DNA of 64,000 bases, from NCBI GenBank assembly GCA_021108075.1, contig JAIORP010000120.1, forward strand, positions 21,557-85,556, read 5' to 3'. Each line of letters opens with the position of its first letter. The first letter of the stretch is position 1. The translations under genes and the position numbers were made by a program. Positions 46,856-64,000 of the stretch are shown one piece after another. The notes beneath the pieces are model-generated. The model was not told the origin of the DNA, searched no databases, and was given only the letters and a program-made list of their open reading frames with translations. Source of the DNA: Candidatus Omnitrophota bacterium (lineage in GTDB: Bacteria; Omnitrophota; Gorgyraeia; Zapsychrales; Zapsychraceae).

Positions 46856-47332
46856 TTAATGCGCCGTTTTTTTTTGGTCAGGCAGGTTTTTATAAATAAT
46901 GATGAGGAGTACGATGATAAATAGTAGTCCAAAAACGAGAATGTAAAAATATTCTATCGAGTGTTCCACATATCCGATGATGTCTTTTCTGCCGGGCTGA
47001 TAGTTATCTAAATAATGATTATAATCCCCTTTTGTGGAAACCAGATCTCCATCGACAGAAACCACCCTGTGGACAAGGATCTTTTTTTTCAGCGGGTTAT
47101 AGAAGGCAATGGGTCTGCCGATGAGATTGTTTAAGTCATCGCCCCATCTGTTATTAATAAGCACGAGACTATTTTTTGGAATATAAGGGGCCATCGAATT
47201 GCTTGTGACCATAAAGATCGGGGTAGATGTGTTTTTCCAATGGCACCATCCTAGTATGGCGAGTGTTATAAAGAGAAATAAAAGAATGGCCGCGATAAGA
47301 ACGATCTTTGCCGTTGTATGTGTTTTTTTCAT
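46856..47332 (-). CDS. Signal peptidase I, SipW/eukaryotic-type (S26B): N-terminal TM, catalytic core and C-terminal TM
   Basis: Box-B-like TSNSMAPYIPKNSLVLI (Ser nucleophile), HRVV box, N-terminal TM IVLIAAILLFLFITLAILGW and C-terminal TM ILVFGLLFIIVLLIII. Confidence 0.65.
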   Translation of the reverse strand: MKKTHTTAKIVLIAAILLFLFITLAILGWCHWKNTSTPIFMVTSNSMAPYIPKNSLVLINNRWGDDLNNLIGRPIAFYNPLKKKILVHRVVSVDGDLVSTKGDYNHYLDNYQPGRKDIIGYVEHSIEYFYILVFGLLFIIVLLIIIYKNLPDQKKTAH

Positions 47333-47485: not shown

Positions 47486-47525
47486 TTGACAAAGAGTGTA
47501 TTAGTGTATTATACTTCTAATACAC
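47486..47525 (+). promoter_or_regulatory. Putative sigma-70 promoter overlapped by a GntR-type operator palindrome, upstream of the gntR-ABC operon
   Basis: TTGACA at 47486-47491, an 18 nt spacer and TATACT at 47510-47515. Inverted repeat GTGTATTAG (47496-47504) / CTAATACAC (47517-47525). RBS AAGGA at 47537-47541. Confidence 0.4.
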
Positions 47526-47550
47526 ATGATGCAAAAAAGGATAATTGATC

Positions 47551-47955
47551 ATGACAGCTGAATCAAAATATTATTTTCATATTCTCACATCTTCAGGGGT
47601 ACCGATTTATCGACAAATCATTGATCAGGTCAAGATGCACATTGCCACAGGGCGATTACCCCAGGACACGTTTTTGCCCTCCGTTCGCCATGTCGCGCAA
47701 GAATTAGAAATTAACCCCATGACCGTTTCCAAGGCCTACTCTATATTAGAACGTGAAGGAGTTTTAGAATCCGTGCGGGGAAAGGGGATGCGTATTAAAG
47801 CCACCCGGCAATCCAATAAAGACCTTAAGCGCAAAGAGGATAGCATTAAGCCGTTATTGAAACAAGTGATCAGCAGAGCTCAACAGCTTTCTTTGGATAT
47901 GAAGAAGGTAACAGCGATATTTCATTCTTTATGGGAGGAAGAAAATCATGAATGA
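47551..47955 (+). CDS. GntR-family transcriptional regulator, short YtrA-like subfamily
   Basis: N-terminal wHTH LPSVRHVAQELEINPMTVSKAYSILEREGVLESVRGKGMRIKA and a short C-terminus. ATG at 47551 is preferred over the TTG at 47545 in the ORF track. The end overlaps the next gene. Confidence 0.8.
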   Translation: MTAESKYYFHILTSSGVPIYRQIIDQVKMHIATGRLPQDTFLPSVRHVAQELEINPMTVSKAYSILEREGVLESVRGKGMRIKATRQSNKDLKRKEDSIKPLLKQVISRAQQLSLDMKKVTAIFHSLWEEENHE

Positions 47956-48826
47956 CCCGATCATACAATTAAAAGAGGTACGCAAGTCCTATGGATTACG
48001 TCTTATTTTAGATCGTCTTAGTTTGAGTGTGCCCGAAGGATCTGTTTTTGGGTTGCTAGGTAAGAATGGAGCAGGAAAGACGACGTTAATCAAGACGATA
48101 TTAGGCCTGCTTAAACCTCAGGAAGGGGATGTTTACACATTTCGAGACAATCCCTGGGATTTTAAAGAAGCAACAAAAGAAAAAATTGGATATGTTCCTC
48201 AATCGGATGTGATGTACCCCTGGCTCAAAATTAAAGAGATCATCGCGTATAGTGCGTCTTTTTACTCGCATTGGAATTCAGAATTGGTCGATCAATTGTT
48301 GAAAGAGTGGGAATTGGATGCAGATGATAAAATTGGTTTGCTTTCCGAGGGACAAGCTCAGAAATTGTCCATTATATTATCATTAGGGCATGAACCGGAA
48401 CTGCTTATTTTTGACGAGCCGGTCGCCAGTCTGGATCCGTACGCGCGCAGGCAGTTTCTCAAGACGATTCTCAATCTCGTGTCGAATCGTTCCTGCACCA
48501 TATTTTTTTCGACACACATTACTTCCGACTTAGAACGCGTTGCGGATCATGTCGCTTTACTGAAAGATGGAAATATTGATTTTAGTGGAGAATTAGACCG
48601 GCTTAAAGATGAAGTCAAGCGGCTACATGTTACGTTTCGTAAGGATTTTAATAATGATTTCAATTTTAAAGGTTTATTACATTTTGAGTCGCTAAAAAAT
48701 GAAGCCATTTTTTCTGTCCGTAGTTTCACCCCGGGCATGAAGACGTTTATTGAAGAAAAATTGAATGCAAAGGTAACCGTTCAGGATCTTAATTTAGAAG
48801 AAATTTTTTTGGAGCTGACGAGATGA
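47948..48826 (+). CDS. ABC transporter ATP-binding protein
   Basis: Walker A GKNGAGKTT, Q-loop, signature LSEGQAQKLSI, Walker B LLIFDEP, H-loop STH. RBS GGGAGGAAG. The start overlaps the gntR stop. Confidence 0.9.
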   Translation: MNDPIIQLKEVRKSYGLRLILDRLSLSVPEGSVFGLLGKNGAGKTTLIKTILGLLKPQEGDVYTFRDNPWDFKEATKEKIGYVPQSDVMYPWLKIKEIIAYSASFYSHWNSELVDQLLKEWELDADDKIGLLSEGQAQKLSIILSLGHEPELLIFDEPVASLDPYARRQFLKTILNLVSNRSCTIFFSTHITSDLERVADHVALLKDGNIDFSGELDRLKDEVKRLHVTFRKDFNNDFNFKGLLHFESLKNEAIFSVRSFTPGMKTFIEEKLNAKVTVQDLNLEEIFLELTR

Positions 48827-50211
48827 AACATTTACGTAGCCTGGGGCATATTTTATGGTTGTATGTTCGCAATCCGTTCTTTATTATGTTGGCGGTCATG
48901 TATGTGTTAGGTGCGATTGTCTCGAAGTGGATGTTTTTTCACGGCCACAATATTGTTGGTAATGATATATGCACACTCATTTTTATTGTCACCATTTGGT
49001 TAGCTTGCATTATTGGGATTATTGTTAAAAGGCAAATGGCCAGTCATCGCGCGAGTTTATTGCCCGGGTATCGCGAGACGCATATTTTCGCCATCTTTTT
49101 TTGGTACGCCATTTTTATTTTTATCGTTTATCTCTGGGAGCAGGGCCTGCGGCTGGATATCGCTTATACCGAAAATGGGTTTGTTGGCATTTATTTAGCA
49201 AGCTTATTTGCCGCTATCCTGATCACGTATTTAGGATATTTATCCATTGGCCGGATTTTGATTTATGCCTATCTGCTGACATTGTTTATTTCTTCTCAGT
49301 CTGCAACCATCGTTTTTTTTATTAATGAACATCCCGCCGTCAATTATTTTTTTGTTAGCGCAAATATCGTTCTTGTCATCTTATTTGTGTATCGTTTGCG
49401 CAAGCTGAAGGAAGACATGTTCGAGTATCATGCGTTATTATCATGGCCGCCACAATCATTTATCCGGAACCAGATGAAGACCGATAATAAATTGCAACTA
49501 TGGATCCAGCGCAAATTTCCGTTTTGGAGATCGTCAAGGACAGTAGGGGTTATCCCGGCCTATCAATCTTTGAAATCATTTGAATCGAGGATGCGCCATT
49601 GGTTGTTTTTTGAAGAAAAAGAGTTTAGACAGATTGGTTGTTTTCTGATTTTTTTTACCCCGATCTATTTAAGCCTTATCAGTTTAATTGACAAGACACA
49701 TGAATTTTTTATGACGCCCTATAATAATTTTCTTTTATTGACCGTAGGGCCGATCCTGTTATTGATTAGTGCAAATTACAAGAAGATGCCGTATTGGAAG
49801 TATGAACTCTTAAAACCTATTCAACGCCGTGATTACATTCTTGAGCGGGGCTTTGGTTTATTAGGTTCTTTGGAGTTGTTTTGGTTATTATTATCATTGT
49901 TCATCGTGATCTTTCCCTCCATACTTCTGAATCCGGCAGCGTTAGGTACATGGCGATTTTGGTTATATTTGGTCTTTACAGAAACCTTTTGTGTATTGAT
50001 TTTTTCAGTTTTATTATCTTTGATCTGCATCAAACAGACCCGGAAAGTAATTTTTTATGGCATCCCTTTTGGGTTTTTTATCATCATTGAGTTTTATCTT
50101 ATCCCGTTTGTAAGTGCAAGAAGTATTCTTTATCATCTTTTATTTTGTTATGTCATTCTTTGGAAACTGTTACCTGCCGTTTTTCGGCAATGGTTAAAAA
50201 AGGAATTGTGA
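48823..50211 (+). CDS. Polytopic membrane protein, likely the ABC-2-type permease partner of the upstream ATPase
   Basis: ATGA start/stop overlap with the ATPase gene. Highly hydrophobic with about 10 or more TM segments. No recognisable motif otherwise. Confidence 0.6.
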   Translation: MKHLRSLGHILWLYVRNPFFIMLAVMYVLGAIVSKWMFFHGHNIVGNDICTLIFIVTIWLACIIGIIVKRQMASHRASLLPGYRETHIFAIFFWYAIFIFIVYLWEQGLRLDIAYTENGFVGIYLASLFAAILITYLGYLSIGRILIYAYLLTLFISSQSATIVFFINEHPAVNYFFVSANIVLVILFVYRLRKLKEDMFEYHALLSWPPQSFIRNQMKTDNKLQLWIQRKFPFWRSSRTVGVIPAYQSLKSFESRMRHWLFFEEKEFRQIGCFLIFFTPIYLSLISLIDKTHEFFMTPYNNFLLLTVGPILLLISANYKKMPYWKYELLKPIQRRDYILERGFGLLGSLELFWLLLSLFIVIFPSILLNPAALGTWRFWLYLVFTETFCVLIFSVLLSLICIKQTRKVIFYGIPFGFFIIIEFYLIPFVSARSILYHLLFCYVILWKLLPAVFRQWLKKEL

Positions 50212-50273
50212 AGACGTGTTGAGTGCTGTTGCAGGCACTTAGCATGAGACTCAGAAGAAGGGAGGTGAATACG

Positions 50274-50504
50274 ATGACACAGGAAGGGATTCTTAAATTT
50301 GTACAGGCTTTGTCTGTTGTGACTGTGGTCGCCGGAGGGTATGGCATGATTCTTTGTGTGCCTTATATTATGCATTACAATGTGCATATCATTTCCGCGG
50401 CAAGTTTGCCCTTTATCGCCGGGGCGGTCCTGGTCGGTTCAGGATTGACAGCATTCGCAATTTTGGTGGACAAAGTCGAATTCAAGCGGTCTACGAAGAA
50501 ATAA
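50274..50504 (+). CDS. Small membrane protein (2 TM), hypothetical
   Basis: Strong RBS GGGAGGTG 6 nt before ATG 50274. The ORF track starts earlier at GTG 50223. Two hydrophobic helices. Confidence 0.4.
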   Translation: MTQEGILKFVQALSVVTVVAGGYGMILCVPYIMHYNVHIISAASLPFIAGAVLVGSGLTAFAILVDKVEFKRSTKK

Positions 50505-51158: not shown

Positions 51159-51776
51159 GTGTCGAATAAAAGTATTCTTGACATAACGTCTCGTTTAAGG
51201 CACCAGGCTCATGACGGGAACATTATTATGAAATTTAAGCAATATTGTCTGGTTTTACTTATTTCTTTAATCGTTTATTATTGCGGCCGGTCCTTTCCTG
51301 CCGGGATTTATCATTTGTTTGCTGTGTCGTCCGGTGAAATGGTCGCCTTTATTATGGGGTGGCTGCCGATGACAAACGAATGGGGGGAGCTTTTTATTGT
51401 CGCACCGCAAAAACCCATTCATATAACGCCTAAATGCAATGGCTTTGGATTTTTTTCCCTTTTGCTGGCTTTTGTTTGGGTCCGCGTGCTGTTTAAAAAA
51501 CAAGAGGTCATATCGGCGTTTGGCCAGTTTTGGCTGATTTTGTTTAGTGTTTATTTCATTGCTATTCTATCGAATGTGATGCGGATGCTGCTGGCTTATT
51601 ATGTGCACTTAATGTCGGTTCATGTGCTGCCGACTAAGTATCAATCGGGAATTCATATGGGGATAGGTGTGGTGACTTTTTTATTTGTTTTTATGGGGAT
51701 CAGCATCTGTTTAGATTTCTGGGACCGTTTAACGGCAGGCAACAGCCCGCGAGTTGCGCAGGGTGGTCGATTCTGA
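51159..51776 (+). CDS. Exosortase/archaeosortase-family protein (short; XrtN-like?). The start is uncertain: GTG 51159 or ATG 51228.
   Basis: Three ordered signature motifs of the family: ITPKCNGFGFF (Cys motif, compare CSG), LSNVMRMLL (NxxR) and GIHMGIG (HxG). Multiple TM helices. Confidence 0.5.
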   Translation: MSNKSILDITSRLRHQAHDGNIIMKFKQYCLVLLISLIVYYCGRSFPAGIYHLFAVSSGEMVAFIMGWLPMTNEWGELFIVAPQKPIHITPKCNGFGFFSLLLAFVWVRVLFKKQEVISAFGQFWLILFSVYFIAILSNVMRMLLAYYVHLMSVHVLPTKYQSGIHMGIGVVTFLFVFMGISICLDFWDRLTAGNSPRVAQGGRF

Positions 51777-51801
51777 CGTTTAATTATGGGAGGGACTTAT
51801 T

Positions 51802-54800
51802 GTGAACAAGAAAAATATATCGGTTGCGTTTCCACCGTTCATTTATTTACCCAAAATGCTGGTTTGGGTTAATATCCTTCCTCAGACGATGCTTTTGTTG
51901 TTAAATCTGCGCGTTTTCTGGATTGTCTGCAAGGAGGAGGGGGTTGACCTGGCGCAAGTCTGGTTTCTATTGGCGTTCCAACTGTTTTTGATCGCAGCCA
52001 GTTTTGTTGTCTGGCGATGGTCCAATGTTAAAAAATTTCTTCCCGCTTCGGCAATGATTTTCTTATTGCTTGGGCAAATAGGTTATTTATGGGCTTTCAT
52101 GTACAAACAACAATTTTTTATCCCATGGCGTATTGAACCCTGGATTATCAATCAAGAACTTGTCAATTTAAACCAGTTCGCCATGATGATGCCCGGCATT
52201 TTTTATGCTATCCTGCGCTTATCGAGTTTTCGTTGGAAAGTTCCCTTTGCCATGGACCTGGGCATTAGTCTTTCTACGATTGTTGGCGTCCCGATTTTGT
52301 TTTTTATTTTTTTACAATTATTCAATGTTTTTTGGATTCTTCCGCAAAGCAGTGCCTTCTCGTGGTTTTACCAGATATTTTTTATTGTCGGTACGATTAT
52401 CGTCTTTCTGGCCCTTGTCCGGGTGACGGTGTTGCTGTTTTATTTAATCCAACAAAAGGTCTGGTCGAAGAATCTGGATATTCTTTTTGCCTTTTTTGTC
52501 GGGGTTCTCGGCCCGATTGGAGGGTTATGCCTGAATAAGAATATTCCTTTTCCAGCCGACTTTCAGTCCCCGTATATTTACGCCTTGGCTTTTATCAATG
52601 GATGCATTTTGATGATCCCTGTCCTCAAAAATAAGAATGGCCGATTAGTTACCTTGTATTTTCGGACATTGTTCTATCCGTTTACATGCTATTTTTTTGT
52701 TGTTTTTTTGCCTTTTTTACCATTGTCCATCCCGTCTATCATCGCGATGGGCTTAGGATTCCTGATCCTCGTTCCCTTTGTTTTGTGGATTATTCACACA
52801 AAACGCATTCATGATGATATTCAATTATTAAAAGTTCAGATGCCCATGCAGAGGATAGTCATTTTAATGATCGCTGCATTAGTCATCATGCCAGGCATAT
52901 TTTTTAATAATGCTTTTCATGACCGCAAGTCGTTACATCAAGCGATTGATTACGTGTATCAGCCCGATTACCAAAAAGACGTTCATTTCGACGGGTCTGC
53001 TAATAATGTCAAGCGGACATTAGTGAAATTAAATAAAATGAAACGCGGTGCGCAGTTACCGTACTTATCTTCAGTTTATAATACTATTGTGTTTGATGGA
53101 ATGGTCCTGCCAGACCGGAAAATTTCGTATCTCCATCAACTCTTTTCTGGTGAGAAGCTTCAGGAATTTCCTTACGGTGGCGCGTCATTTTGGGGGAGGG
53201 GAGGTCAATGGAGAGGGAGGCGTCAAAGGGTTGCAGAGATGACCTTGGGTGAATTGATGGCAAAACCCGATGAAGAACCCCGCGTTTCTGAGGTGACATT
53301 GTTAGATCTTGAGACTTCACAACACGTTTTGGGCCAGATGATGAGCACAACGGTTCATTTTAAGATGAAGAACGGGACCCAAAGCGATAATGCTGAATAT
53401 TTCACAACGATACATTTACCGAAAGGTGTTTTGATCAAAGATTATCACTTAAAGGTTGGGGATGAAATGGTTCCCGGGCGGATTTTTGAAAAAAAGACAG
53501 CGATGTGGGTTTATCATATGATCCGTGATTTTACGCGCAGAGACCCGGGGATTCTTGTCTATCAATCTCCCCAGGATATCGATTTTCGAGTCTATCCCTT
53601 CCTTCGTTCTGAACTGCGGGAAGCCTCATTAACATTGCTTTATCCTAAAGATATCAATCCCATCATTACGGTCGCGGACAGGGAATTGTCTCTTCAATCG
53701 CAAGCCCCCGCGTTGACAGATGCCGTGCTCATCAATCAACCGTCTGGCGCATATGATTTTTCCTTTATTTCAGCAAAAAGGATCGCGGAATTACCCGCTT
53801 TTAAACGGGAACCATATTTTCATTTTATTCTGGATTACAGCCTTTCAGGTTATGATTCAGCGGAAGATTATGCGCAGCAAATAGATTTGATTTTTAAGCA
53901 ATTCCCTCAAATCAAACAGATGGCTGTTACGGCCGCTCATTTTGATATTGAGACATTGTTGGATGATCCGCTCCCTGTTCAAGCGATAGCGCAGCGCGAC
54001 CAGGCTTTGCGGAGATGCCGTTTGAAGAAAAAGGGGTCATTGGATTTAAATCGTGTCCTAAAGAAAATATTCTTGGACTATGAGCTGAAATTGACAACAG
54101 CGAAAAATAGTTCTCATCCGGGGCTTTGGAATAAATACCCGGTCTTTGTGGTTTTAAGTAAACGCCCCCAAGATGTTTTATTTGTTCATGATAATTTAGC
54201 TTATTATGATTATTTGCTGCCTGAGCAAAATTATTTTTATATCAACCAGCTAGGCACACCTTTAAAGCGTGTCAATCTATGGCGCAAGAGACCATTTCGG
54301 GAGCAACAAGATGTTGTCGCCTTGAGACGAGGCACAAGGGTTACGGTCATTCCTAAGAATTTTGATCAACCCCAGTTTGCATTCCATTTAACAAAAGATC
54401 ACAATCAGCAAAGCGCATGGCTGGAGGTTTTTGATTCGGGGCAGAATGATTTTATATCCATCAATGGAGCAAAAAAGATCCCGGCGGATCAAATTTATAC
54501 GAAAGGGATTGAATCTGTTCTAGATAGTTATATCTCTGTGCAGCATCCTAAGGATATCCAGCTTCCCAGGCAGATTCTTGAGCAAAGCCGAAAATTGAAT
54601 ATTTTGACACCCTTAACATCTTTCATCGTTGTTGAACGGGACTCGCAATGGAAGACTCTGGAGCTCAAAGAAAAACAAAAAATGCGTTCTCACCAAGCCT
54701 TTGATTTTGAAGACGATTTTGATACCCCGACGCCTTCGTTTTTATATCTCGTTATTTGCTTGCTGGGATTTCATTTTGTTATCAAAATAGTGTCGAAAAA

Positions 54801-54816
54801 AATCAACACTGTTTAA
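51802..54816 (+). CDS. Large membrane protein: about 10 N-terminal TM helices, an extracytoplasmic VIT-like (vault/inter-alpha-trypsin) domain and a C-terminal hydrophobic tail. Probable exosortase-system partner.
   Basis: GTG start with RBS GGGAGGG. VIT-like VHFKMKNGTQSDNAEYFTTIHLPKGVLIKDYHLKVGDEMVPGRIFEKKTAMWVY. C-terminal ...PTPSFLYLVICLLGFHFVIKIVSKK. Adjacent to the exosortase-like gene. Confidence 0.65.
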   Translation: MNKKNISVAFPPFIYLPKMLVWVNILPQTMLLLLNLRVFWIVCKEEGVDLAQVWFLLAFQLFLIAASFVVWRWSNVKKFLPASAMIFLLLGQIGYLWAFMYKQQFFIPWRIEPWIINQELVNLNQFAMMMPGIFYAILRLSSFRWKVPFAMDLGISLSTIVGVPILFFIFLQLFNVFWILPQSSAFSWFYQIFFIVGTIIVFLALVRVTVLLFYLIQQKVWSKNLDILFAFFVGVLGPIGGLCLNKNIPFPADFQSPYIYALAFINGCILMIPVLKNKNGRLVTLYFRTLFYPFTCYFFVVFLPFLPLSIPSIIAMGLGFLILVPFVLWIIHTKRIHDDIQLLKVQMPMQRIVILMIAALVIMPGIFFNNAFHDRKSLHQAIDYVYQPDYQKDVHFDGSANNVKRTLVKLNKMKRGAQLPYLSSVYNTIVFDGMVLPDRKISYLHQLFSGEKLQEFPYGGASFWGRGGQWRGRRQRVAEMTLGELMAKPDEEPRVSEVTLLDLETSQHVLGQMMSTTVHFKMKNGTQSDNAEYFTTIHLPKGVLIKDYHLKVGDEMVPGRIFEKKTAMWVYHMIRDFTRRDPGILVYQSPQDIDFRVYPFLRSELREASLTLLYPKDINPIITVADRELSLQSQAPALTDAVLINQPSGAYDFSFISAKRIAELPAFKREPYFHFILDYSLSGYDSAEDYAQQIDLIFKQFPQIKQMAVTAAHFDIETLLDDPLPVQAIAQRDQALRRCRLKKKGSLDLNRVLKKIFLDYELKLTTAKNSSHPGLWNKYPVFVVLSKRPQDVLFVHDNLAYYDYLLPEQNYFYINQLGTPLKRVNLWRKRPFREQQDVVALRRGTRVTVIPKNFDQPQFAFHLTKDHNQQSAWLEVFDSGQNDFISINGAKKIPADQIYTKGIESVLDSYISVQHPKDIQLPRQILEQSRKLNILTPLTSFIVVERDSQWKTLELKEKQKMRSHQAFDFEDDFDTPTPSFLYLVICLLGFHFVIKIVSKKINTV

Positions 54817-54956: not shown

Positions 54957-55026
54957 ACAAGTAGGATAAATGCTTACAAATAAAAAAGATCTTCGGATCT
55001 TTAGATGTGTTAGAGAGGAGCGGAAC

Positions 55027-55260
55027 ATGATGATGACTAAGTTGGGAATTATTTCTGGAGAAATATTAACTCTGCTTGAAGAGAAGAAAAGACCTCTTCG
55101 GTTTAAAGAAATAGACGAATATATTGATGAGCCACGTGAGTTGATTGATATGAGCTTGGGTTGGTTGACCAGAGAAGGGTTGACAGACATTGAGTGGGAA
55201 AATGATCAAGATTTCATTGTCATTGATAAACACATTCATACAGAACAAACAACAAATTGA
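55027..55260 (+). CDS. Small winged-helix DNA-binding-like protein (hypothetical)
   Basis: RBS GAGGAG 9 nt upstream of ATG 55027. ILTLLEEKKRPLRFKEIDEYI...SLGWLTREGL resembles a wHTH. Confidence 0.4.
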   Translation: MMMTKLGIISGEILTLLEEKKRPLRFKEIDEYIDEPRELIDMSLGWLTREGLTDIEWENDQDFIVIDKHIHTEQTTN

Positions 55261-55644
55261 TCTTGTAAGGCCATGCTACTAAACAACTTATGTTTATAAT
55301 AGATCTCTCCGGGCGAAATTTTGCCGTTACTTTCGATGATGTTTTCCCCTGTCGTCATTTGTTTCATTCCATCCGATCATTTCCTCATTAAAGCGCTTCA
55401 AATAATATAATCTCCTTATATTAAAAGGCTTTGACTTGAGCCTCCGCTTTTTTGCTGTACAAAAAGCTTGATCATCCAATTGCATTTTTCGGGTTTATGC
55501 TTTCTACCTGATTTTTTGGTGCTTTCACATCTGAAAATCGTTAGGTGGATGTCTCTGTTTAGCGAGGAACAGTTAGGAGTCTGTTTCACCGGTTTTTTCA
55601 AGGAGCCTCAATTGGTGATCTAATCATTCTTTGTTGATCAGGTT

Positions 55645-57531
55645 TTATTGGATGCGCTTGAATTGTTTATCAAGGAACTGTTCGTCCATTTCAATAACGG
55701 TCGGCCGTCCATGTGGGCAGGTGAACGGATCGAGACAATGAAGCAGTTGCTGACATTGATGTTGGGCTTGCTCTGGTTTGAGGCGGTCTCCTGCCATGAT
55801 TGATGACCGGCAGGCCCGGCGCGCAATTGAATCAAAGTCGCATTGGCCGATATGATCTCCGGCCAAAAGATGGCGGACGGCCTGTTCGATATTCTTGATT
55901 AAGACCGGGTGGGTGTCAATCGCTATTATGGCTGGATCAAATTGGTGGTTTTCAAACCCGATTTCTTTCAATTTCATTTGCACCTCTTCCCAAACAATCA
56001 TTTCCTGGGGAGAGAGTTTGACCAATACCGGGCTTAAGAGATGTTGGGCCTCAACGGTTCCTTTTTGCATTTGATGCAGCAATATTTCATAAGTGATGCG
56101 TTCCTGGGCGGCATGTTGATCCATTAACAAAAGGGAAGTCTGTGACTGGAAAAGCAAATATTTGTTTAAGAACGATCCGATGTAACCGGCCTGCTCAAGC
56201 TTTGCGTGGAAGCTATTTGAATGTTGACTGAAGGTATTATTTTTGGAATAGAAGAAGGAAGCCTGATCTTCTTTTCGAGGATCTGGATGATGTTTAAGGT
56301 GAGGGCTTGTCCTTTTTTCTGGTTGAGAATGCGGGAGGGTATGAGGGTAGGATTCAATCCCGGATGATAATGCTGAATAGGCATCATCAGAGGAAAAAGT
56401 CTTAGAGTCGTAGTCTATTGCCGGAGTATGCGTTGACGTTAACGCTTTCGTTGTGTCCGAAGACGCGGATCGGGCTGAAGAAAAATTATTCTTTGTCAGG
56501 TCGACCGAGACTTGTTTGGTTTGTCCGGCTCGCATCAGGGCTTGTTCGCAAATGGTCCGCAGGTAGCGTGACAGTTCCTTTTCGGTCCTGATTTTTACTT
56601 CTCTTTTTGTGGGATGAATATTCACATCGATCTCTTCAGGGTTCATTTCGATATAGATCGCAAAAAAAGGATAGACGCTGTCCGGCATGATCAAACGGTA
56701 AATGTTATTGATATGATAGGAAATGCTTTTGTTTTGAACCGGACGGCCATTGATAAAAAGGAATTGCATATCCCGCCGGGAACGCTGGATGTTAATATCA
56801 CCTAAAACCATGCGGATCGCGAGGCTTTCTTTATCAATGCGTTGGTTTGTCTCGAGTAAATATTCAGGATTAACATTCAGGGCATCAGCTGCACGGGTCA
56901 CAAAGCTGTCGGTCGTCTTTAAAGAAATCAGTGTCCGGTTTTGGTGTGTCAGGGTGAACTGACAATCCGTGTGTAATAACGTGTAGGGAATAAACGTGTT
57001 CAAGATTTGATGCAGTTCGGTCGTGTTTGTTTTAAGAAATTTTTTTCGCGCCGGCGTGTTGAAAAAAAGTTCACGGATGATCATCTCCGTACCGGTTGAT
57101 GGTCGCGCGCAAGGTTTGAGCCCGATTTTTTCTCCCCCTCTAAAATGGATTTCCCATCCGGGATTTTGATCCTGTGTGCGGCTTTGGACGACGATATCGG
57201 CAATCGCCCCAATGCTGTAGAGGGCCTCACCTCGAAAACCCAAAGACATGATGGCATAAAGATCGTCAATGGTTGTTATTTTGCTCGTGGCATGACGGAT
57301 GAAAATGTTCTCAAGGTCATCCTGGGCTATACCCTGACCATTGTCTTTGATCACCATCGAGGTTTTGCCAGCGTTCTGCAAATGGACTTCGATTTGGCTG
57401 GCCTTAGCATCAAGGGCGTTCTCAACACATTCTTTGATGACAGAAGCCGGTCGATCAATCACTTCACCGGCAGCGATCTTGCTGACGATTTCTGAGGGGA
57501 GAATTTTTACTTTGCTCATAAGGTATTTCAC
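55645..57531 (-). CDS. mutL: DNA mismatch repair protein MutL
   Basis: N-terminal GHKL ATPase: IAAGEVIDRPASVIKECVENALDA, DNGQGI, GFRGEAL. C-terminal dimerisation domain. Lies immediately downstream of mutS on the same strand. Confidence 0.9.
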   Translation of the reverse strand: MKYLMSKVKILPSEIVSKIAAGEVIDRPASVIKECVENALDAKASQIEVHLQNAGKTSMVIKDNGQGIAQDDLENIFIRHATSKITTIDDLYAIMSLGFRGEALYSIGAIADIVVQSRTQDQNPGWEIHFRGGEKIGLKPCARPSTGTEMIIRELFFNTPARKKFLKTNTTELHQILNTFIPYTLLHTDCQFTLTHQNRTLISLKTTDSFVTRAADALNVNPEYLLETNQRIDKESLAIRMVLGDINIQRSRRDMQFLFINGRPVQNKSISYHINNIYRLIMPDSVYPFFAIYIEMNPEEIDVNIHPTKREVKIRTEKELSRYLRTICEQALMRAGQTKQVSVDLTKNNFSSARSASSDTTKALTSTHTPAIDYDSKTFSSDDAYSALSSGIESYPHTLPHSQPEKRTSPHLKHHPDPRKEDQASFFYSKNNTFSQHSNSFHAKLEQAGYIGSFLNKYLLFQSQTSLLLMDQHAAQERITYEILLHQMQKGTVEAQHLLSPVLVKLSPQEMIVWEEVQMKLKEIGFENHQFDPAIIAIDTHPVLIKNIEQAVRHLLAGDHIGQCDFDSIARRACRSSIMAGDRLKPEQAQHQCQQLLHCLDPFTCPHGRPTVIEMDEQFLDKQFKRIQ

Positions 57532-57554
57532 TTTTTTTTGGGTTAATCTTGTTT

Positions 57555-60131
57555 TTACGTTTCGCTCTGTAAAATCTTTTTAAGCTCGTCGATTTTGTTC
57601 AATGCTTGAATAGGGGTAATATGGTTGATATCCATCGCGCTAAAGACAGTCTTGACTTTATCAAATATTGGATCAGGTGAGGCCGGCTGTGAAAACAAGT
57701 CCAATTGTCTTTCATTGGCCTTTTTTCTCGTGTCCGCATGATCACGAATATCTTGTTTTAATTCAAGCTTAGTTAATATTTTTTTCGCCTGGCTGATGAT
57801 AGAAGAGGGGATCCCGGCCAATTTAGCGACATAAATACCATAGCTGTCATCTGTTCCGCCTGGAATAATTTTGTGTAAGAATATAATCTCTTCTTCCCAT
57901 TCTTTCACCGCGACATTGTAGTTTTTTACACCGGTAAAATCCTGAGCTAAAGCTGTTAATTCGTGAAAGTGCGTTGCAAAAAGAGTGCGCGCTTTTGTTT
58001 GCTGCAAGTGTTCTGCCAGGGCCCACGCCAGGCTCAATCCGTCATACGTGCTTGTTCCGCGACCGATTTCATCTAAGATGATCAGGCTGCGTTCCGTCAA
58101 GTTATTTAAAATATCGGCGGTCTCATTCATTTCAACCATAAAGGTGCTTTGGCCTCTGGTGATATCATCGTGCGCCCCGATACGGGTGAAAATTTTATCA
58201 ACGATTCCGATTTGGGCTGATACCGCGGGGAGATAACTACCAATTTGAGCCATAATAACAAGGATCGCCACTTGACGAATGTATGTTGATTTTCCTGCCA
58301 TATTGGGCCCGGTTAAGATGATCAGGTGATCCTCTTTACAATTGAGGTGCACATCATTGGGGGTGAATGTTTCGGTAATGGTCTTTTCAACAACCGGGTG
58401 GCGGCCGTCTTCAATGATTAAGTGAGATGATGCATTGATGGACGGGCAGATGTATCCAGGGTTTTGGGAGAGAGTGGTCATGGAGGAAATCGCATCAATA
58501 GTGGCAATCGCATCGCAAAGGGCATGTAAAGAAACAGATTGTTTCAGAATTTCCATACGGAGTTCGTTGATAAGTTCATTTTCAATCTTAATGATTTTAT
58601 CTTGGGCTGTCAGAATTTTTTCTTCATATTCCTTCAATTCAGGGGTAATGAATCGTTCGGCGTTAACCAGGGTTTGTTTACGAATATAATGTTGGGGAAC
58701 ATTTTTAAGTTTTGTTTTTGTTATTTCAATATAGTAACCAAAAATTTTGTTAAAACCGATTTTCAACGAGTTGATCCCTGTCTGTTTGATTTCTTGCTCT
58801 TGTAATTTTTTTAACCATTGGTGTCCATTGGCCTGGATGTCGCGCAGTTGGTCCAATTGGGCATGATATCCCGTCTGGATAATTTTTCCTTCAGGCTTTG
58901 AGAGGGGGATATCTTCGTTAATGGCCCGGCAAAGTAAGTCTCTTAAATTCGGGATATCGGCAAGATGAAACAGAAAGTTTTTTTCTTCAAGGGGTTTTGT
59001 CAGTTCGATCAAATGCGGGATGTTTGTTAACGTTTGCCGGATAGCTAATAGATCCTTGGCATGGGTATACCCGCAACTGAGACGGGAAATGTTTTTCTCA
59101 ATATCAGGAATTTTTTGTAAAAGATATTTGAGGTCTTGCGCCGTGCTCGTTTGATCTCTTAGTAATTGGATCGCTTTCTGACGTTGGACAATGTTCTCTG
59201 TGTTTTTTAATGGATGATAAAGCCAAAAACGAAATTTACGTTTCCCTGATGCGGTGATCGTATGGTCGATCGTTTTAAGCAAGGTCGGCAATTCAAGTCC
59301 GCGGTAAGCCGCGGGAGAGATGAAGACATAATCATCGTCCAGATACAGTGTGATTTTATCAATATGTTCCAGCGGTTGTTTGTTCATGTGTTTCAGGTAT
59401 TCTAATAAAGCTCCAGCGCTTGAAACCGCTGAAGGAAGTTGCTCGATCCCAAACCCATGTAAGTTATGAATAGAAAAATGTTCACAAAGTGTTTTTTTCG
59501 CGATATCTGGATTAAAGCACCAATCATTATGCGGACTCAGGGTGATGTTTTTTATTTTCAACAAGGTTTGACTGAAAATATTTTTAATTTCTTCATCTTG
59601 ACTGTCCGGGTAGATGCATTCGTACACCGGGAGCCGTGATATCAGTTCTGTTAATCTTTTTTTATTGAGAGGAAATTGATTTGTTTGAATGGTGCCACTG
59701 GTTGGATCAATGAATGAGACACCAACCGATCGGGCATTGGGACTTAAGCACATAAGGTAACGGGTATCGGTGGTATTTTCATCTAAATATGTTCCGGAAG
59801 AAATGATACGGGTGACATCGCGTTTAACAATTCCTTTGGCCAGGGCCGGATCTTCCATTTGATCGCAGATGGCAATTTTATATCCCGCTTTGACGAGTCT
59901 GGCGATATAATTGTCAGCGGCGTGATGAGGAAATCCGCACATAGGTACTTTATTTGTTGGTGACTTTCCCCGGGAGGTGAGGACGAGATTAAGTTCGCGG
60001 GACACCATTTGGGCGTCTTCAAAAAACATTTCATAAAAGTCACCCAACCGGAAAAAAAGAATGCATCCCTGGTGTTTTTCTTTTATTTGATGATACTGTT
60101 TCAGCATCGGAGTGCTTGCTGTCTTGTCCAT
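57555..60131 (-). CDS. mutS: DNA mismatch repair protein MutS
   Basis: N-terminal mismatch-binding TPMLKQYHQIKEKHQGCILFFRLGDFYEMFFEDA. Walker A GPNMAGKST. DEIGRGTSTYDG. C-terminal HTH. Confidence 0.92.
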   Translation of the reverse strand: MDKTASTPMLKQYHQIKEKHQGCILFFRLGDFYEMFFEDAQMVSRELNLVLTSRGKSPTNKVPMCGFPHHAADNYIARLVKAGYKIAICDQMEDPALAKGIVKRDVTRIISSGTYLDENTTDTRYLMCLSPNARSVGVSFIDPTSGTIQTNQFPLNKKRLTELISRLPVYECIYPDSQDEEIKNIFSQTLLKIKNITLSPHNDWCFNPDIAKKTLCEHFSIHNLHGFGIEQLPSAVSSAGALLEYLKHMNKQPLEHIDKITLYLDDDYVFISPAAYRGLELPTLLKTIDHTITASGKRKFRFWLYHPLKNTENIVQRQKAIQLLRDQTSTAQDLKYLLQKIPDIEKNISRLSCGYTHAKDLLAIRQTLTNIPHLIELTKPLEEKNFLFHLADIPNLRDLLCRAINEDIPLSKPEGKIIQTGYHAQLDQLRDIQANGHQWLKKLQEQEIKQTGINSLKIGFNKIFGYYIEITKTKLKNVPQHYIRKQTLVNAERFITPELKEYEEKILTAQDKIIKIENELINELRMEILKQSVSLHALCDAIATIDAISSMTTLSQNPGYICPSINASSHLIIEDGRHPVVEKTITETFTPNDVHLNCKEDHLIILTGPNMAGKSTYIRQVAILVIMAQIGSYLPAVSAQIGIVDKIFTRIGAHDDITRGQSTFMVEMNETADILNNLTERSLIILDEIGRGTSTYDGLSLAWALAEHLQQTKARTLFATHFHELTALAQDFTGVKNYNVAVKEWEEEIIFLHKIIPGGTDDSYGIYVAKLAGIPSSIISQAKKILTKLELKQDIRDHADTRKKANERQLDLFSQPASPDPIFDKVKTVFSAMDINHITPIQALNKIDELKKILQSET

Positions 60132-60400
60132 GGTTATTTCGTGGTTTGAATGATGATTGTTTCTTTGTGAACTAAGCGTGCCGCTGAGGGCAAAAAGAGT
60201 GCCCAGTGCAAAGTTATTTTATACCATAAAATGTGATGAGGGGAAATAAAAAGATCATCCGATGGGGACAAGGCAAAACAGAAGAAGGGGACGGGGCGTT
60301 TTGTTCTGTGAAATAATGCTTGGGGATGATGGGCAAAACATTCTCTAGTGGCGAAACGGTTTACGGGGTTTTTGGGCGGTATCATAGGAAAGGGGTCACA

Positions 60401-61018
60401 TTATTCATCAAAGTGTTGTTCCATCATCAGCTGCAGGACTTCTTCACTGCTGGTGAGTGGCAGGATAAACATGCGGCATTCTAAATTTTGTTTATATGTT
60501 ATAAACGTGGATTCCATGATCAAGAGTTCATCTTTCTCTGAGGCGATGCTCATGATGTATTCTTGAAAAACCGTGCTCAGGAAATCTTTAATAACAATGG
60601 GCGGGCTGGGTTTTAGGTTAATACAAAAATCGCGTGATAAAATATTGGTACAAGCGCTGGCTAAAATATTGCCCAGTTCTTGGATGGCACTGGCCGTGTA
60701 AGCGTCATATTCTGTGGTCGTTCCGACGGGGCGTTGAAGGATGAGATCCGTTATTGTAAAAGTATCTTTAAGATATGTATAGAAAAGAAATTTAAAGGGG
60801 GCGTCACCGACCAGATCGATAAACGTGGCCACAATCTCCGCTTGTTTTTCATTCATGATACGCTTGCTTATATCTGTCATATCCCCATAATAAATGTTTT
60901 CTAATTCAACGCGAGCTCCTGTCTTTAACATTTTAGATAAAAGCTGAGAACATCTCTCGACGCACAGTGTTGCAATCAGTTGTAACCCTTTTTGGGTTTT
61001 TGTTAGTTCAGGCATCAT
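60401..61018 (-). CDS. CheC/CheX-family (chemotaxis phosphatase-like) protein
   Basis: AIQELGNILASACTNILSRDFCINLKPSPP resembles the CheC/CheX/FliY conserved segment. Confidence 0.45.
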   Translation of the reverse strand: MMPELTKTQKGLQLIATLCVERCSQLLSKMLKTGARVELENIYYGDMTDISKRIMNEKQAEIVATFIDLVGDAPFKFLFYTYLKDTFTITDLILQRPVGTTTEYDAYTASAIQELGNILASACTNILSRDFCINLKPSPPIVIKDFLSTVFQEYIMSIASEKDELLIMESTFITYKQNLECRMFILPLTSSEEVLQLMMEQHFDE

Positions 61019-61254
61019 CGTTTCCTGTTTATTCGCATCGTTTGGTCAGGTAGGATCCCCCGACCAGGCTGTTTTTCAGTCTGGCGGTCATTTGATTGTA
61101 TATTAGTATAAATGTATATTGAAAAAATTTCAATAAACAATGTAAAAAATTTCAGGATCGCCCAGACTATTAAAATTTGGCGCTTAATGGCCTGAATGGT
61201 ATACTTCGTTCGTCACACCACAAAAATATTCGCAAAAGGCAGGTATTCATTCCC

Positions 61255-62073
61255 ATGAAATCATTCTATCAAACGGTGATTATTTTAATTATTGGAGTCA
61301 CTTTTTTTGGGGCTGAACAAGTGACGATGGCACAAGATGATCCGATCAATAAATTGGAGTATGACCGTAGTATCCATCGCCTCCGTCTAGAGAAAAATAT
61401 TATTCATGATCGGTTGATTAATATAAAATCTGAAAACCAGCGGTTGTTTCGTTTGTGTTTTGATCAAGCAGGAGGTCTGGCGGTCCTGGACGGTTATTGT
61501 CAAGAACTACGGCGCATTATCCATCATGAACGAGCGATGAAGTTCAGGCAGACACAGCAGATTTCCGAGTTTTATCAGGGGCGGGAACGGAACGCGCGCC
61601 TGAAAGCCATGTCGGCATATCCTCAGCCCCCGGAGCAAACGTATTTATGGGCTGACATGAATAAAGAAATAGATTTGCTCACAATCAACCTGATGGAGGT
61701 TTTAGATCAGCATGAGCTTCACCTTTCCGAACTTGATCAATATGAGCGTGCCTTTTATGCCTTACAGGTTCAACTGTTGAGACAAGGTTTAAAGAATGCG
61801 TCTTTGAGTGATCAGATCCTATTATCAGGCGACACCTATCAACAGGATAATGATTCGTTGTGGGATTCATTAGTGGATCAGGTTGAAAGGAATAAGTATA
61901 AAAAGAAAATTATATCCCACCAAAAAGTTAAGATCGATCAATTAAAAGCAACGGTCACGGAATATCGACGATTGGTCGATTGGCAATCAGAGCTTATCCG
62001 CAAACAGGATCAGCATATCCTAACCCTTGAAGGTCGAATGTCAGGTTTATCTGCCTGGCTATATGGGCATTGA
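61255..62073 (+). CDS. Hypothetical coiled-coil protein with an N-terminal signal/TM. The start is ambiguous: the ORF track gives TTG 61177.
   Basis: MKSFYQTVIILIIGVTFFGAEQVTMA, then a Q/E/R-rich helical sequence. Confidence 0.45.
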   Translation: MKSFYQTVIILIIGVTFFGAEQVTMAQDDPINKLEYDRSIHRLRLEKNIIHDRLINIKSENQRLFRLCFDQAGGLAVLDGYCQELRRIIHHERAMKFRQTQQISEFYQGRERNARLKAMSAYPQPPEQTYLWADMNKEIDLLTINLMEVLDQHELHLSELDQYERAFYALQVQLLRQGLKNASLSDQILLSGDTYQQDNDSLWDSLVDQVERNKYKKKIISHQKVKIDQLKATVTEYRRLVDWQSELIRKQDQHILTLEGRMSGLSAWLYGH

Positions 62074-62307
62074 TACCAATTCCATTAAATGATTACCAAA
62101 ATCAATTCTGCCTTTCAGAATTGAAATAGAACAATTAATTAATGGATTTGGTATGACTTTTTCATCAAACGTTTTTTATTTATTATTTTATGGGGAACCG
62201 AAAAATCGTATTTTTTTGCTGTTAATCCTAAAAATTTTAATATAATACTCAATTGAATTAGCGACGAAGAAGTGTTGTCCTGAATATTTATAAATAAGGA
62301 GTATACG

Positions 62308-63615
62308 ATGAAAAGAAATATTTTCCGACCCGTTTTGTTGATAAGCTTTTTATTATGCGGACTGGTCCAAATTTGTATTCCGCTAACAAGTGTAGCTGTC
62401 ACGGACCAATTTAAAAGCGAATCCCAGCGGTTATCACGTTGGTTAGAAAATAACAGGGACCCACGCACCGGACTTCCCTATAGTCACGTCGGTGACAAGC
62501 GTTTTGAGCAATGGGCGATTACCTATGATGCAGCATTAACCACGTTGGCCTACATCAGTATCAATGAAATTGAACCGGCAGCACGCATTATGGATTTTTA
62601 TTTGCAAACACCCAAGGTTTGGCGTTTAGGGGGTGTGATTGAAGCTTATTTGACCGGGGAGGTGATTCGTAGCCAGGATTGGACGGTGCGGAGCGGGGCG
62701 AATATATGGTTAGCTTTGGCCAGTTACCATCTTTACAAAGTCACAAATATCAAGACTTATTTAAATTTTTCTGAAAAAATAGCCGCGACGGTTCTTGCGC
62801 TGCAAAACAAGTCCGAAGACGATCCTAATCATGGCGGGATTCCGCTGGGGCCACCAGGGTCGTCCGAGAATCCCGGAGATCAGCATTTCGGCTATGACAC
62901 AGATAAACCCTCTTTTCACACCGTCTTTTCCTCAGAGGTGACCATTGATGCGTACGCCCTGTTTTCATTTTTGTACGCAGAAACACAGGAGGAGAAATAT
63001 TTGCGATCAAAGGAATTATGTTTGGTGTGGTTAAAAAATAATGCGTATCAACCCGGTCGTTCCTATCTTTTTCGCGGTTATCATGATTCTGTTGTGGCCA
63101 GCGATGTCCAGCATTGGGCTATTTCAGCAATGGGTCCTGAAATATTAAACGAGATAGAGGCGGACCTGCCGTTTAAGATGATTAAGTTTGTGGAAGATCA
63201 TTGTGTCCATGAAATTGAATATGTGAATAATGATAGCAAAACTGTGACGATAAGAGGTGTGGATTTTATTGATAAAAAGAGGGCGGAAGATATCGGCCGA
63301 AGTGTGATGGTTAGTCCAGAATGGACATTTCAATTAGCTAATGCGTATTTGCGGTTGGAGCAATATCAGGCCAAAAAAAAGAAGTGGCGGGACGTTAATG
63401 CCCTCATGCAAAAAAGAACGGGCTTATTAAGGGAGATGCTGAAGTTAGCCATTGAGAATGAAGGCGGTTTGGCGTATCCGTACGCCACTTTGGCTGATGC
63501 CCCGATTGGTCATGAGTTTCATACCCCGAAGCAAGGCACCCTAAGTACCAGCGGCGTCGCTTATGGCATTATGGCTTTGCAGGGGTTTGATCCTTTGGCC
63601 CCGCATGAAGAATAG
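62308..63615 (+). CDS. Secreted hypothetical protein (signal peptide), possibly an alpha/alpha-toroid glycosidase-like fold
   Basis: RBS AAGGAG before ATG 62308. Signal peptide MKRNIFRPVLLISFLLCGLVQICIPLTSVAV. No firm motif. Confidence 0.55.
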   Translation: MKRNIFRPVLLISFLLCGLVQICIPLTSVAVTDQFKSESQRLSRWLENNRDPRTGLPYSHVGDKRFEQWAITYDAALTTLAYISINEIEPAARIMDFYLQTPKVWRLGGVIEAYLTGEVIRSQDWTVRSGANIWLALASYHLYKVTNIKTYLNFSEKIAATVLALQNKSEDDPNHGGIPLGPPGSSENPGDQHFGYDTDKPSFHTVFSSEVTIDAYALFSFLYAETQEEKYLRSKELCLVWLKNNAYQPGRSYLFRGYHDSVVASDVQHWAISAMGPEILNEIEADLPFKMIKFVEDHCVHEIEYVNNDSKTVTIRGVDFIDKKRAEDIGRSVMVSPEWTFQLANAYLRLEQYQAKKKKWRDVNALMQKRTGLLREMLKLAIENEGGLAYPYATLADAPIGHEFHTPKQGTLSTSGVAYGIMALQGFDPLAPHEE

Positions 63616-64000
63616 ATGACGGCATCCAATCTATCCTGATTTATGATGATAATCATAAAAAAAAAGTATGCTCAGAGAGGAATTAATATTTTTTTAAACT
63701 GATTATCTTCTGTCCGGGGCCTGCTATTTATAATTAACTGATATTAAATAACTTAAGGATTCTGGCCGTAACTAAAACTTATAACGATACACTTGTCATA
63801 AAGTGTTTTATATGTTATTTTTATAATACATCTTCAGTGAAGCTACTTACATATATATTGCTATTTAAAATTTACAACCTTAGTTCATACTAAGGACTTT
63901 TTATCCCGAGATTTTCATTAGTGATGAGAATTCGAGATGAATCCCGTAGAATAACGGGTAAGCCCTGTAATGGAGTTTATACAGACGGGGTCTACTCTGC

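Follow-up and report, generated by a model that had tools for sequence, protein, structure and literature searches.

A small exosortase-like gene and its predicted MSEP-CTERM-family substrate in an Omnitrophota genome

The window analysed here is a stretch of 64,000 nucleotides from a Candidatus Omnitrophota bacterium (contig JAIORP010000120.1, assembly GCA_021108075.1). Its forward strand carries two adjacent genes, separated by a gap of 25 nt, that are the subject of this report: a small gene for an exosortase-like protein, followed by a large gene for a membrane protein of the MSEP-CTERM family (Table 1). The open reading frame (ORF) of the small gene stays open upstream to a GTG at 51159, which gives 205 amino acids (aa; 51159-51776), the length assigned in an earlier, sequence-only reading of this DNA. 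We favour the ATG at 51228, because NCBI starts the gene there and because a homologue from the Joint Genome Institute, 73% identical, has an equal length; the protein is thus likely to be 182 aa long, and its residues are numbered accordingly below.

Table 1. Coordinates of the gene pair, its functional elements and the genes upstream of it. Positions are those of the window; TM, transmembrane; AF2, AlphaFold2.
Feature	Position	Strand	Remarks
Small exosortase-like gene	51228..51776	+	182 aa; NCBI locus K8S27_08980, labelled 'hypothetical protein'
PKCNGFGFF motif	51429-51455	+	
Cys70 codon, predicted nucleophile, inside PKCNGFGFF	51435..51437	+	Cys93 in 205-aa numbering
NVMR, Asn116 and Arg119	51573..51584	+	Asn conserved in 152/154, Arg in 154/154 representatives
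HMGIG, His143 and Gly147	51654..51668	+	each invariant in 154/154 representatives
GGGAGGG, Shine-Dalgarno-like	51788..51794	+	7 nt 5' of substrate GTG, 11 nt 3' of exosortase stop
MSEP-CTERM-family gene, predicted sole substrate	51802..54816	+	1004 aa from GTG; TIGR04286
N-terminal polytopic membrane domain, aa 19-386	51856..52959	+	~11 TM helices, N-terminus inside; AF2, positive-inside pattern
VIT beta-sandwich, aa 498-630, predicted periplasmic	53293..53691	+	PF08487, AF2 strands, Foldseek to ITIH1
vWA-like alpha/beta domain, aa 642-830	53725..54291	+	DYSLS at 53833-53847; AF2; structural matches to ITIH1 and MIDAS domains
Acidic box AFDFED, aa 966-971	54697..54714	+	consensus A-L-E/D-F-E-E; column counts, 99 homologues
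TPTPS, PEP-like P-x-P recognition motif	54724..54738	+	consensus [T/S/M]-P-[E/A]-P-[S/G/P]; disordered in AF2 (aa 974-979)
C-terminal TM helix FLYLVICLLGFHFVIKIV, then basic SKK	54739..54801	+	AF2 helix 980-1003
SipW/ER-type S26-like peptidase	46856-47332	-	158 aa; convergent with giant-gene end; SMAP and HRV boxes visible
GntR regulator	47545-47955	+	upstream module
PmtA-like ABC ATPase	47948-48826	+	upstream module
Polytopic permease, 462 aa	48823-50211	+	upstream module; no Pfam family
Membrane protein, 93 aa	50223-50504	+	upstream module
Orphan ORF, 130 aa, basic N-terminus, one TM helix	50756-51148	+	no family match

The small protein contains the Cys-bearing PKCNGFGFF, NVMR and HMGIG, the exosortase motifs that the sequence-only reading had picked out, and in the order it gave. 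An exhaustive profile search returned 992 clusters (50% identity) at E<=1e-10, with a median length of 178 aa. Over the 154 best representatives of these clusters, the Cys, Arg, His and Gly of the three motifs are invariant, and the Asn is absent from only two. For a closer comparison we turned to relatives of the large protein in another 26 distinct loci, two of which are from Bacteroidota and the rest from Omnitrophota, Kiritimatiellae, Victivallales, Verrucomicrobia and Phycisphaerae (loci are identified by L numbers where they must be told apart). When 23 small proteins from these loci were aligned, including both Bacteroidota ones, only five columns were invariant, namely those of Cys70, Asn116, Arg119, His143 and Gly147.

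We searched the small protein against curated hidden Markov models (HMMs). The exosortase/archaeosortase signature TIGR04178, with a cutoff of 23, is narrowly passed at 23.8 bits for the 205-aa form and 24.2 bits for the 182-aa form, as the sequence-only reading had anticipated, and it is matched at E<=0.01 by 23 of the 23 aligned small proteins. The top specific family is TIGR04287, XrtK (26.8-27.5 bits, E 2-3e-6), although the match spans only positions 59-155 of a profile of length 163; the 23 aligned neighbours, too, all have XrtK as their best specific match. The Pfam model Exosortase_EpsH aligns to the C-terminal half of the protein, at profile positions 126-252 of 254, and the XrtA model weakly matches six of the 23 relatives. 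Judged by these matches, the small protein is a member of the exosortase superfamily; we call it XrtK-like rather than XrtK because the superfamily tests are passed but the TIGR04287 cutoff is missed.

The scores of the relatives place this shortfall in context. TIGR04287 gives 112-114 bits to the Bacteroidota proteins and 22-44 bits to every counterpart from Omnitrophota and the Planctomycetes-Verrucomicrobia-Chlamydiae (PVC) group. The Bacteroidota XrtK proteins nevertheless align end to end with the other small proteins; the window enzyme is 14-17% identical to Bacteroidota XrtK and aligns over its full length with the enzymes of L026 and L027. On this comparison the family is wider than the curated XrtK model, which reaches no further than its Bacteroidota branch, and the window enzyme is therefore labelled 'hypothetical'.

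The AF2 model of the small protein has a predicted local distance difference test (pLDDT) score of 85.4 and a predicted TM-score (pTM) of 0.80, and shows five helices and a small beta-sheet. Specifically, helices at 3-20 and 24-43 are followed by a three-stranded sheet at 46-66, by Cys70, and by helices at 73-88, 94-130 and 136-171. No PDB chain matches the profile of the enzyme, and the best Foldseek match against the PDB has an E value of 0.4.

A further line of evidence is the arrangement of the genes. In 24 of the 24 loci that retain upstream DNA, the MSEP-CTERM gene is preceded on its own strand by a gene homologous to the small one. We do not put this recurrence, or the invariance of the Cys, Arg and His, down to chance, and the earlier suggestion that the two genes form a protein-sorting pair is supported. 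In 20 of the 24 the two genes abut or overlap, with a spacing of -28 to +209 nt. The four remaining loci, from Victivallales/Verrucomicrobia, have 1.4-3.3 kb inserted between the exosortase and substrate genes (L008:6711-10001, L014:562-3803, L012:1720-3156, L010:739-2233); the inserts of L008, L012 and L014 hold ORFs of 140-186 aa that cluster with the MSEP family, and the exosortase ORF of L014 is seemingly cut off after the Arg motif. In L004, the gene caller predicted a 166-aa product 5' of the MSEP gene in an incorrect frame; the true exosortase (xrt) ORF there is L004:7532-8014.

The large protein is named 'MSEP-CTERM sorting domain-containing protein' (1004 aa) by NCBI, in a record of a Candidatus Omnitrophica metagenome-assembled genome. 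It matches the equivalog model TIGR04286 (MSEP-CTERM sorting domain protein) at 418.8 bits (E 4e-125; cutoff 150), the best stretch being residues 17-456 on profile positions 6-449 of 920. The architecture is common to 106 homologues. The sequence-only reading had considered the long polytopic N-terminus atypical and had counted 10 TM helices in it; this N-terminus is present in all 99 full-length homologues and belongs to the family definition, because the TIGR04286 profile covers it, and the AF2 model together with the family-wide charge pattern puts the number of helices at about 11. The VIT domain that the same reading had proposed holds up, since Pfam VIT PF08487 is passed, barely, at 26.7 bits against a cutoff of 26.5.

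Because of this VIT domain, the pair had been likened to an XrtN-type exosortase with a VIT-domain target. A model for the VIT-domain targets of XrtN systems does exist (TIGR04477), and the large protein gives it a weak partial match confined to the VIT region (aa 521-607); three of the 23 small proteins also touch the XrtN model (TIGR04476) at E<=0.01. However, the TIGR04477 match stays far below its cutoff (40.3 bits, cutoff 250), whereas TIGR04286 is passed by a wide margin (419 bits, cutoff 150); the window enzyme itself has no XrtN match at E<=1 in the HMM search, and among specific families all 23 small proteins score best with XrtK. On these scores we rejected the assignment to XrtN, which we regard as having almost no chance of being correct.

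The AF2 model of the large protein is confident (pLDDT 89.3, pTM 0.88). Its membrane domain has no Pfam match and no PDB sequence match. Juxtamembrane helices and a disordered linker (462-493) lead from this domain to the VIT beta-sandwich, which is followed by the vWA-like domain and by a further beta and helical region. No PDB chain matched the ectodomain at the sequence level, but a Foldseek search of the PDB aligned the whole soluble part with the human inter-alpha-inhibitor heavy chain ITIH1 (6FPY; E 2.3e-10, probability 1.0, 595 columns, 11% identity). In its predicted structure, the ectodomain (about 590 residues: VIT, vWA-like and hybrid-like) thus has the inter-alpha-inhibitor heavy-chain fold. 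We considered and rejected a canonical MIDAS (an adhesion site that depends on a metal ion) in the vWA-like domain. The window protein has a complete DxSxS, in the form DYSLS; among the 99 homologues Asp678 is conserved in 95 and Ser680 in 93, and the third Ser is not conserved. Because only D-x-S is kept family-wide, we do not assert metal-dependent adhesion.

The C-terminus of the large protein reads ...DFDTPTPSFLYLVICLLGFHFVIKIVSKKINTV, or, spelled out by element, DFDTPTPS-FLYLVICLLGFHFVIKIV-SKKINTV. The sequence-only reading had seen in the hydrophobic helix and the two lysines what looked like a sorting signal, and the tail does have the tripartite layout of such a signal; what it had overlooked is the predicted recognition motif TPTPS in front of the helix. 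Across the 99 homologues the tail consists of a P-x-P motif, about 14 hydrophobic residues and a cluster of Arg and Lys, with a mean of 4.3 and a minimum of 2 such residues after the helix. The second Pro of the motif is present in 96 of the 99 and the first in 80, its place being taken by Ser in the MSEP forms. Only the Bacteroidota members have MSEP; the others have [T/S]-P-[A/E]-P. In other words, the 'MSEP' motif is the Bacteroidota-specific form of an ordinary PEP-like P-x-P signal. An acidic box sits 4-9 residues ahead of the motif in nearly all of the 99, and because it is conserved there, what the enzyme recognises may extend beyond a plain PEP-CTERM signal. The Pfam PEP-CTERM model PF07589 has no match to the tail at E<=1, and a precomputed match exists for one of the 106 homologues (P0044). 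By a hydropathy criterion the substrate's tail is the sole P-x-P/TM/basic tail among the 235 ORFs of the window; a search for other proteins with the same tail, confined to these ORFs, found no further one.

For the two proteins to act on one another, the active site and the cleavage motif should face the same side of the membrane, and the distribution of charged residues points to this arrangement. With the N-terminus of the substrate inside, the predicted inside loops of its family carry a mean of 9.05 Lys and Arg, compared with 2.07 in the outside loops; this positive-inside pattern would therefore place the ectodomain and the P-x-P motif in the periplasm and SKK in the cytoplasm. The substrate lacks a cleavable signal peptide, the polytopic domain coming first. 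In the enzyme family, the segment before the Cys is net acidic (0.8 Lys and Arg, 2.0 Asp and Glu), the loop after helix 3 is basic (1.9 Lys and Arg in 4.5 residues), and the C-terminal tail is basic too, a pattern that would therefore put Cys70, Arg119 and His143 at the periplasmic face. The predicted topologies are thus compatible, the Cys motif and the C-terminal motif lying on the same, periplasmic, side; the earlier worry that they might fall on incompatible sides is not borne out.

Taken together, we consider it probable that the two genes constitute a dedicated one-enzyme, one-substrate C-terminal sorting system of the exosortase K/MSEP-CTERM type. The established parts of this proposal are the family assignments, the invariant motifs, the obligate adjacency of the genes, the compatible topology and the fold of the ectodomain; that the tail is cleaved and transferred, and to what biological end, we infer from the homology with ArtA and other exosortases. 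The enzyme would be a stripped-down exosortase, that is, a membrane cysteine transpeptidase or protease with a periplasmic Cys70-Arg119-His143 site. Its substrate would be anchored twice, by the 11 or so N-terminal TM helices and by the C-terminal helix with its basic end in the cytoplasm. TPTPS would be recognised just outside the C-terminal helix and the chain cut at or near the motif through a thioester acyl-enzyme, so that the helix and basic tail are discarded. The new C-terminus would then be handed to a nucleophile, which could be water, a glycan or, as with ArtA, a lipid head-group; a protein pinned at both ends would thereby come to have a C-terminus that is free or modified. The substrate would not be released by the reaction, because the 11-TM domain is kept.

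Several points weigh against this proposal. The curated XrtK cutoff of 55 bits is reached neither by the window protein (26.8-27.5 bits) nor by any of its Omnitrophota and PVC counterparts (22-44 bits). TPTPS replaces the literal MSEP, and Thr at its middle position is rare, occurring in two of the 99 homologues. The absolute orientation of the enzyme rests on charge bias, with an ambiguous placement of the first two helices, and we found no solved exosortase structure for comparison. That the large protein is the sole substrate was judged within 64 kb of the genome only. Finally, our literature search turned up no experimental or descriptive paper on XrtK/MSEP-CTERM; an exosortase paper on F. 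johnsoniae that it returned deals with XrtF.

The nature of the second step is where an alternative must be weighed. The enzyme could be a site-specific hydrolase only, one that frees or activates one end of the ectodomain and transfers no lipid or glycan. The 11 TM helices would keep the substrate membrane-bound in any case, so that re-anchoring is not obviously required, and to our knowledge no acceptor is known for any exosortase. Yet sortase transpeptidases have a similar chemistry to that of Cys/Arg/His here, the acidic box conserved ahead of the P-x-P motif suggests more than a simple cut site, and in the related ArtA cleavage is coupled to the attachment of a lipid (PMC9263693). On balance we think hydrolysis alone unlikely.

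ArtA, of the ArtA/PGF-CTERM system of Haloferax volcanii, is the one characterised relative of the proposed sorting enzyme, being the only member of the homologous superfamily with experimentally shown catalytic residues and cleavage (PMC9263693). Its Cys173, Arg214 and Arg253 are essential, and its tripartite signal of motif, TM helix and basic residues is cleaved, with a lipid attached afterwards (PMC9263693). Arg119 of the window enzyme is homologous to the essential Arg214. The differences are that ArtA is archaeal, reads a PGF motif, is reported to have Arg253 rather than His as its third critical residue, and acts on the S-layer glycoprotein and other substrates to give a lipid-anchored product.

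The closest known system is XrtK/MSEP-CTERM as defined in Bacteroidota (TIGR04287/TIGR04286). It shares with the window pair the enzyme-first two-gene order, often overlapping; the size of the enzyme (about 178 aa), its helix plan and its invariant Cys/Asn/Arg/His/Gly; and the plan of the substrate, with about 11 TM helices, VIT and vWA-like domains and the C-terminal motif/TM/basic tail. It differs in that the window enzyme scores 27 bits against the cutoff of 55 and has the low identity to Bacteroidota XrtK given above, in that TPTPS is a P-x-P form like that of other Omnitrophota/PVC members and not MSEP, and in the host phylum, Omnitrophota, where a GntR/ABC module accompanies the pair in four of six Omnitrophota-type loci. 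The PEP-CTERM/exosortase A system (EpsH, XrtA) likewise has a signal in three parts (P-E/A-P, TM helix, basic cluster) and an enzyme core of Cys, Arg and His, but EpsH-type enzymes have about eight TM helices and the window enzyme corresponds only to the latter part of their profile. EpsH-type exosortases have many substrates per genome and belong to exopolysaccharide loci (PMC1569441), unlike the window enzyme with its single adjacent substrate; among the genes of the window that we examined (44-64 kb), none was recognised as an exopolysaccharide gene.

The structural match to ITIH1 covers the whole ectodomain fold, VIT, vWFA and hybrid-like. ITIH1 differs in being a secreted eukaryotic protein that has neither a membrane domain nor an exosortase, at 11% sequence identity, and its MIDAS is complete where the window family conserves only D-x-S. 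Mammalian ITIH heavy chains lose a C-terminal pro-segment as their C-terminus becomes ester-linked to chondroitin sulfate (PMC7170535). This parallel in C-terminal chemistry is suggestive, an analogy and not evidence. Carried to its end, it would make the pair a bacterial counterpart of animal heavy-chain transfer: the mini-exosortase would cut an ITIH-fold ectodomain at the acidic box/P-x-P, and the C-terminus would be esterified or amidated to a glycan or lipid from the GntR-regulated ABC exporter, with the 11-TM domain serving as a docking platform or acceptor conduit for an enzyme without the usual N-terminal helices. We attach little probability to this idea; if it were true, the long-sought acceptor class for an exosortase would be identified.

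The pair is of a kind catalogued in NCBIfam, and the locus itself is no surprise; what the analysis mainly adds is a corrected annotation and a model system that is clean and minimal. The XrtK model, which was built on Bacteroidota, fails to detect the enzyme of Omnitrophota, Kiritimatiellae, Victivallales, Verrucomicrobia and Phycisphaerae, although the substrates are found by the partner model; as the enzyme is 'hypothetical' in the NCBI record of this genome, its pairing with the substrate does not show there. For exosortase biochemistry, a 180-aa enzyme with one adjacent substrate and confident models of both is attractive, and its appeal is increased by an ectodomain fold shared with a protein family that is glycan-linked through its C-terminus.

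Upstream of the pair lies a module of four genes, for a GntR regulator, a PmtA-like ABC ATPase, a 462-aa permease and a 93-aa membrane protein. Together with the exosortase and substrate genes they could form a six-gene operon, in which the ABC exporter supplies an acceptor or partner; this would extend the sorting-system proposal. The four genes (47545-50504) are on the same strand and overlap or nearly abut, and the region's best promoter-like site (47486-47515) is ahead of the GntR gene. Besides the window, the module is retained with the xrt/MSEP pair in L001, L004 and L005, at protein identities of 57-68% for GntR, 62-64% for the ABC ATPase, 30-36% for the permease and 42-46% for the small membrane protein; the gene set has been kept despite divergence of its proteins to 30-68% identity. 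The cluster of L004 is intact in spite of three inserted genes. On the other hand, the module is absent from the Omnitrophota-type loci L003 and L006 and from all PVC and Bacteroidota loci; in the window a gap of 251 nt and an orphan 130-aa ORF separate it from xrt; GntR-ABC operons commonly stand alone; and the four genomes may be related closely enough to have kept their gene order. We therefore lean somewhat against a single operon while keeping it as a serious possibility. Likewise, because the module recurs in three other Omnitrophota-type loci yet is missing from L003, L006, PVC and Bacteroidota, we rate it as a possible, still tentative, clade-specific accessory of the pair.

The module spans L001:143-2821, L004:1380-5853 and L005:6413-9410, and its small membrane protein is about 70-93 aa long across loci; in L001 the gene for this protein lies downstream of the MSEP gene instead (6380-6586). 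In L004 the three inserted genes, which separate the ABC module from the exosortase gene (L004:4133-7554), encode a B12-binding radical SAM protein, a 286-aa protein and a PrsW-family protease.

Other loci have a different set of upstream genes. In PVC loci and L003 (L003:4670-7305, L011:7052-9390, L023:7109-9390; also L009, L016, L018 and L020), a protein of about 200-250 aa and an HTH_34/ArsR-type winged-helix regulator are found, followed by a DUF4153 membrane protein in L003 and by ORFs of about 420-460 aa without a Pfam family in the PVC loci. We compared the 462-aa permease of the window with the DUF4153 protein 5' of xrt in L003, and the two are not related. Linalool dehydratase/isomerase (Ldi)-like proteins (PF18566, E 1e-7 to 1e-9) flank the pair in L006:5582-6760, L009:7429-8982 and L018:7674-9191; they cluster by BLAST with the ORFs of about 420 aa of L011, L020 and L023, and none is found in the window, where the 435-aa ORF at 62308-63615 was checked as an Ldi-like neighbour and rejected. 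The orphan 130-aa ORF and a DUF2582 winged helix-turn-helix gene (54970-55260) were also considered as parts of the system and dismissed, neither having a homologue in any other fetched locus.

Downstream of the pair, two ORFs (61177-62073 and 62308-63615) have no family, and the region 54970-64000 is otherwise unrelated housekeeping sequence, with the DUF2582 winged-helix gene on the forward strand and mutL, mutS and a CheC-like gene (60401-61018) on the reverse strand.

The remaining part of the window is dominated by a giant ORF, the end of which converges with the gene for the S26-like peptidase. The sequence-only reading had suggested that this peptidase and the giant protein could be tied to the pair, as a larger surface-assembly system in which all of them would cooperate. 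The genes are close together in the window, and the peptidase ORF exists and is S26/ER-type-like, as that reading had it, with 45.9 bits to TIGR02228 and visible SMAP and HRV boxes; it remains, however, under all curated cutoffs (TIGR02228 45.9 against 51.85, TIGR02227 32.2 against 47, NF046067 20.3 against 190). Moreover, it is on the opposite strand, with the GntR-led operon between it and the pair. None of the other 26 fetched loci has a counterpart of the peptidase, and a phmmer search with the 15,549-aa giant protein against every ORF of those loci gave no homologue at E<1e-5. The giant protein has no P-x-P/TM/basic tail, the substrate has no cleavable signal peptide, and the literature on Omnitrophota giant genes that we examined mentions neither exosortases nor signal peptidases. 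Such a joint system is very unlikely, and the supposed tie to the pair finds no support in the comparison. Giant genes of Omnitrophota have been described previously (bioRxiv 10.1101/2023.11.21.568195). The one in the window (26-46675, forward strand) encodes 15,549 aa and fills 73% of the window; it has a purine-rich stretch at about 20-30 kb, with a GC skew of 0.27-0.42 and an AT skew of 0.12-0.19, and its translation contains long, near-identical internal protein repeats.

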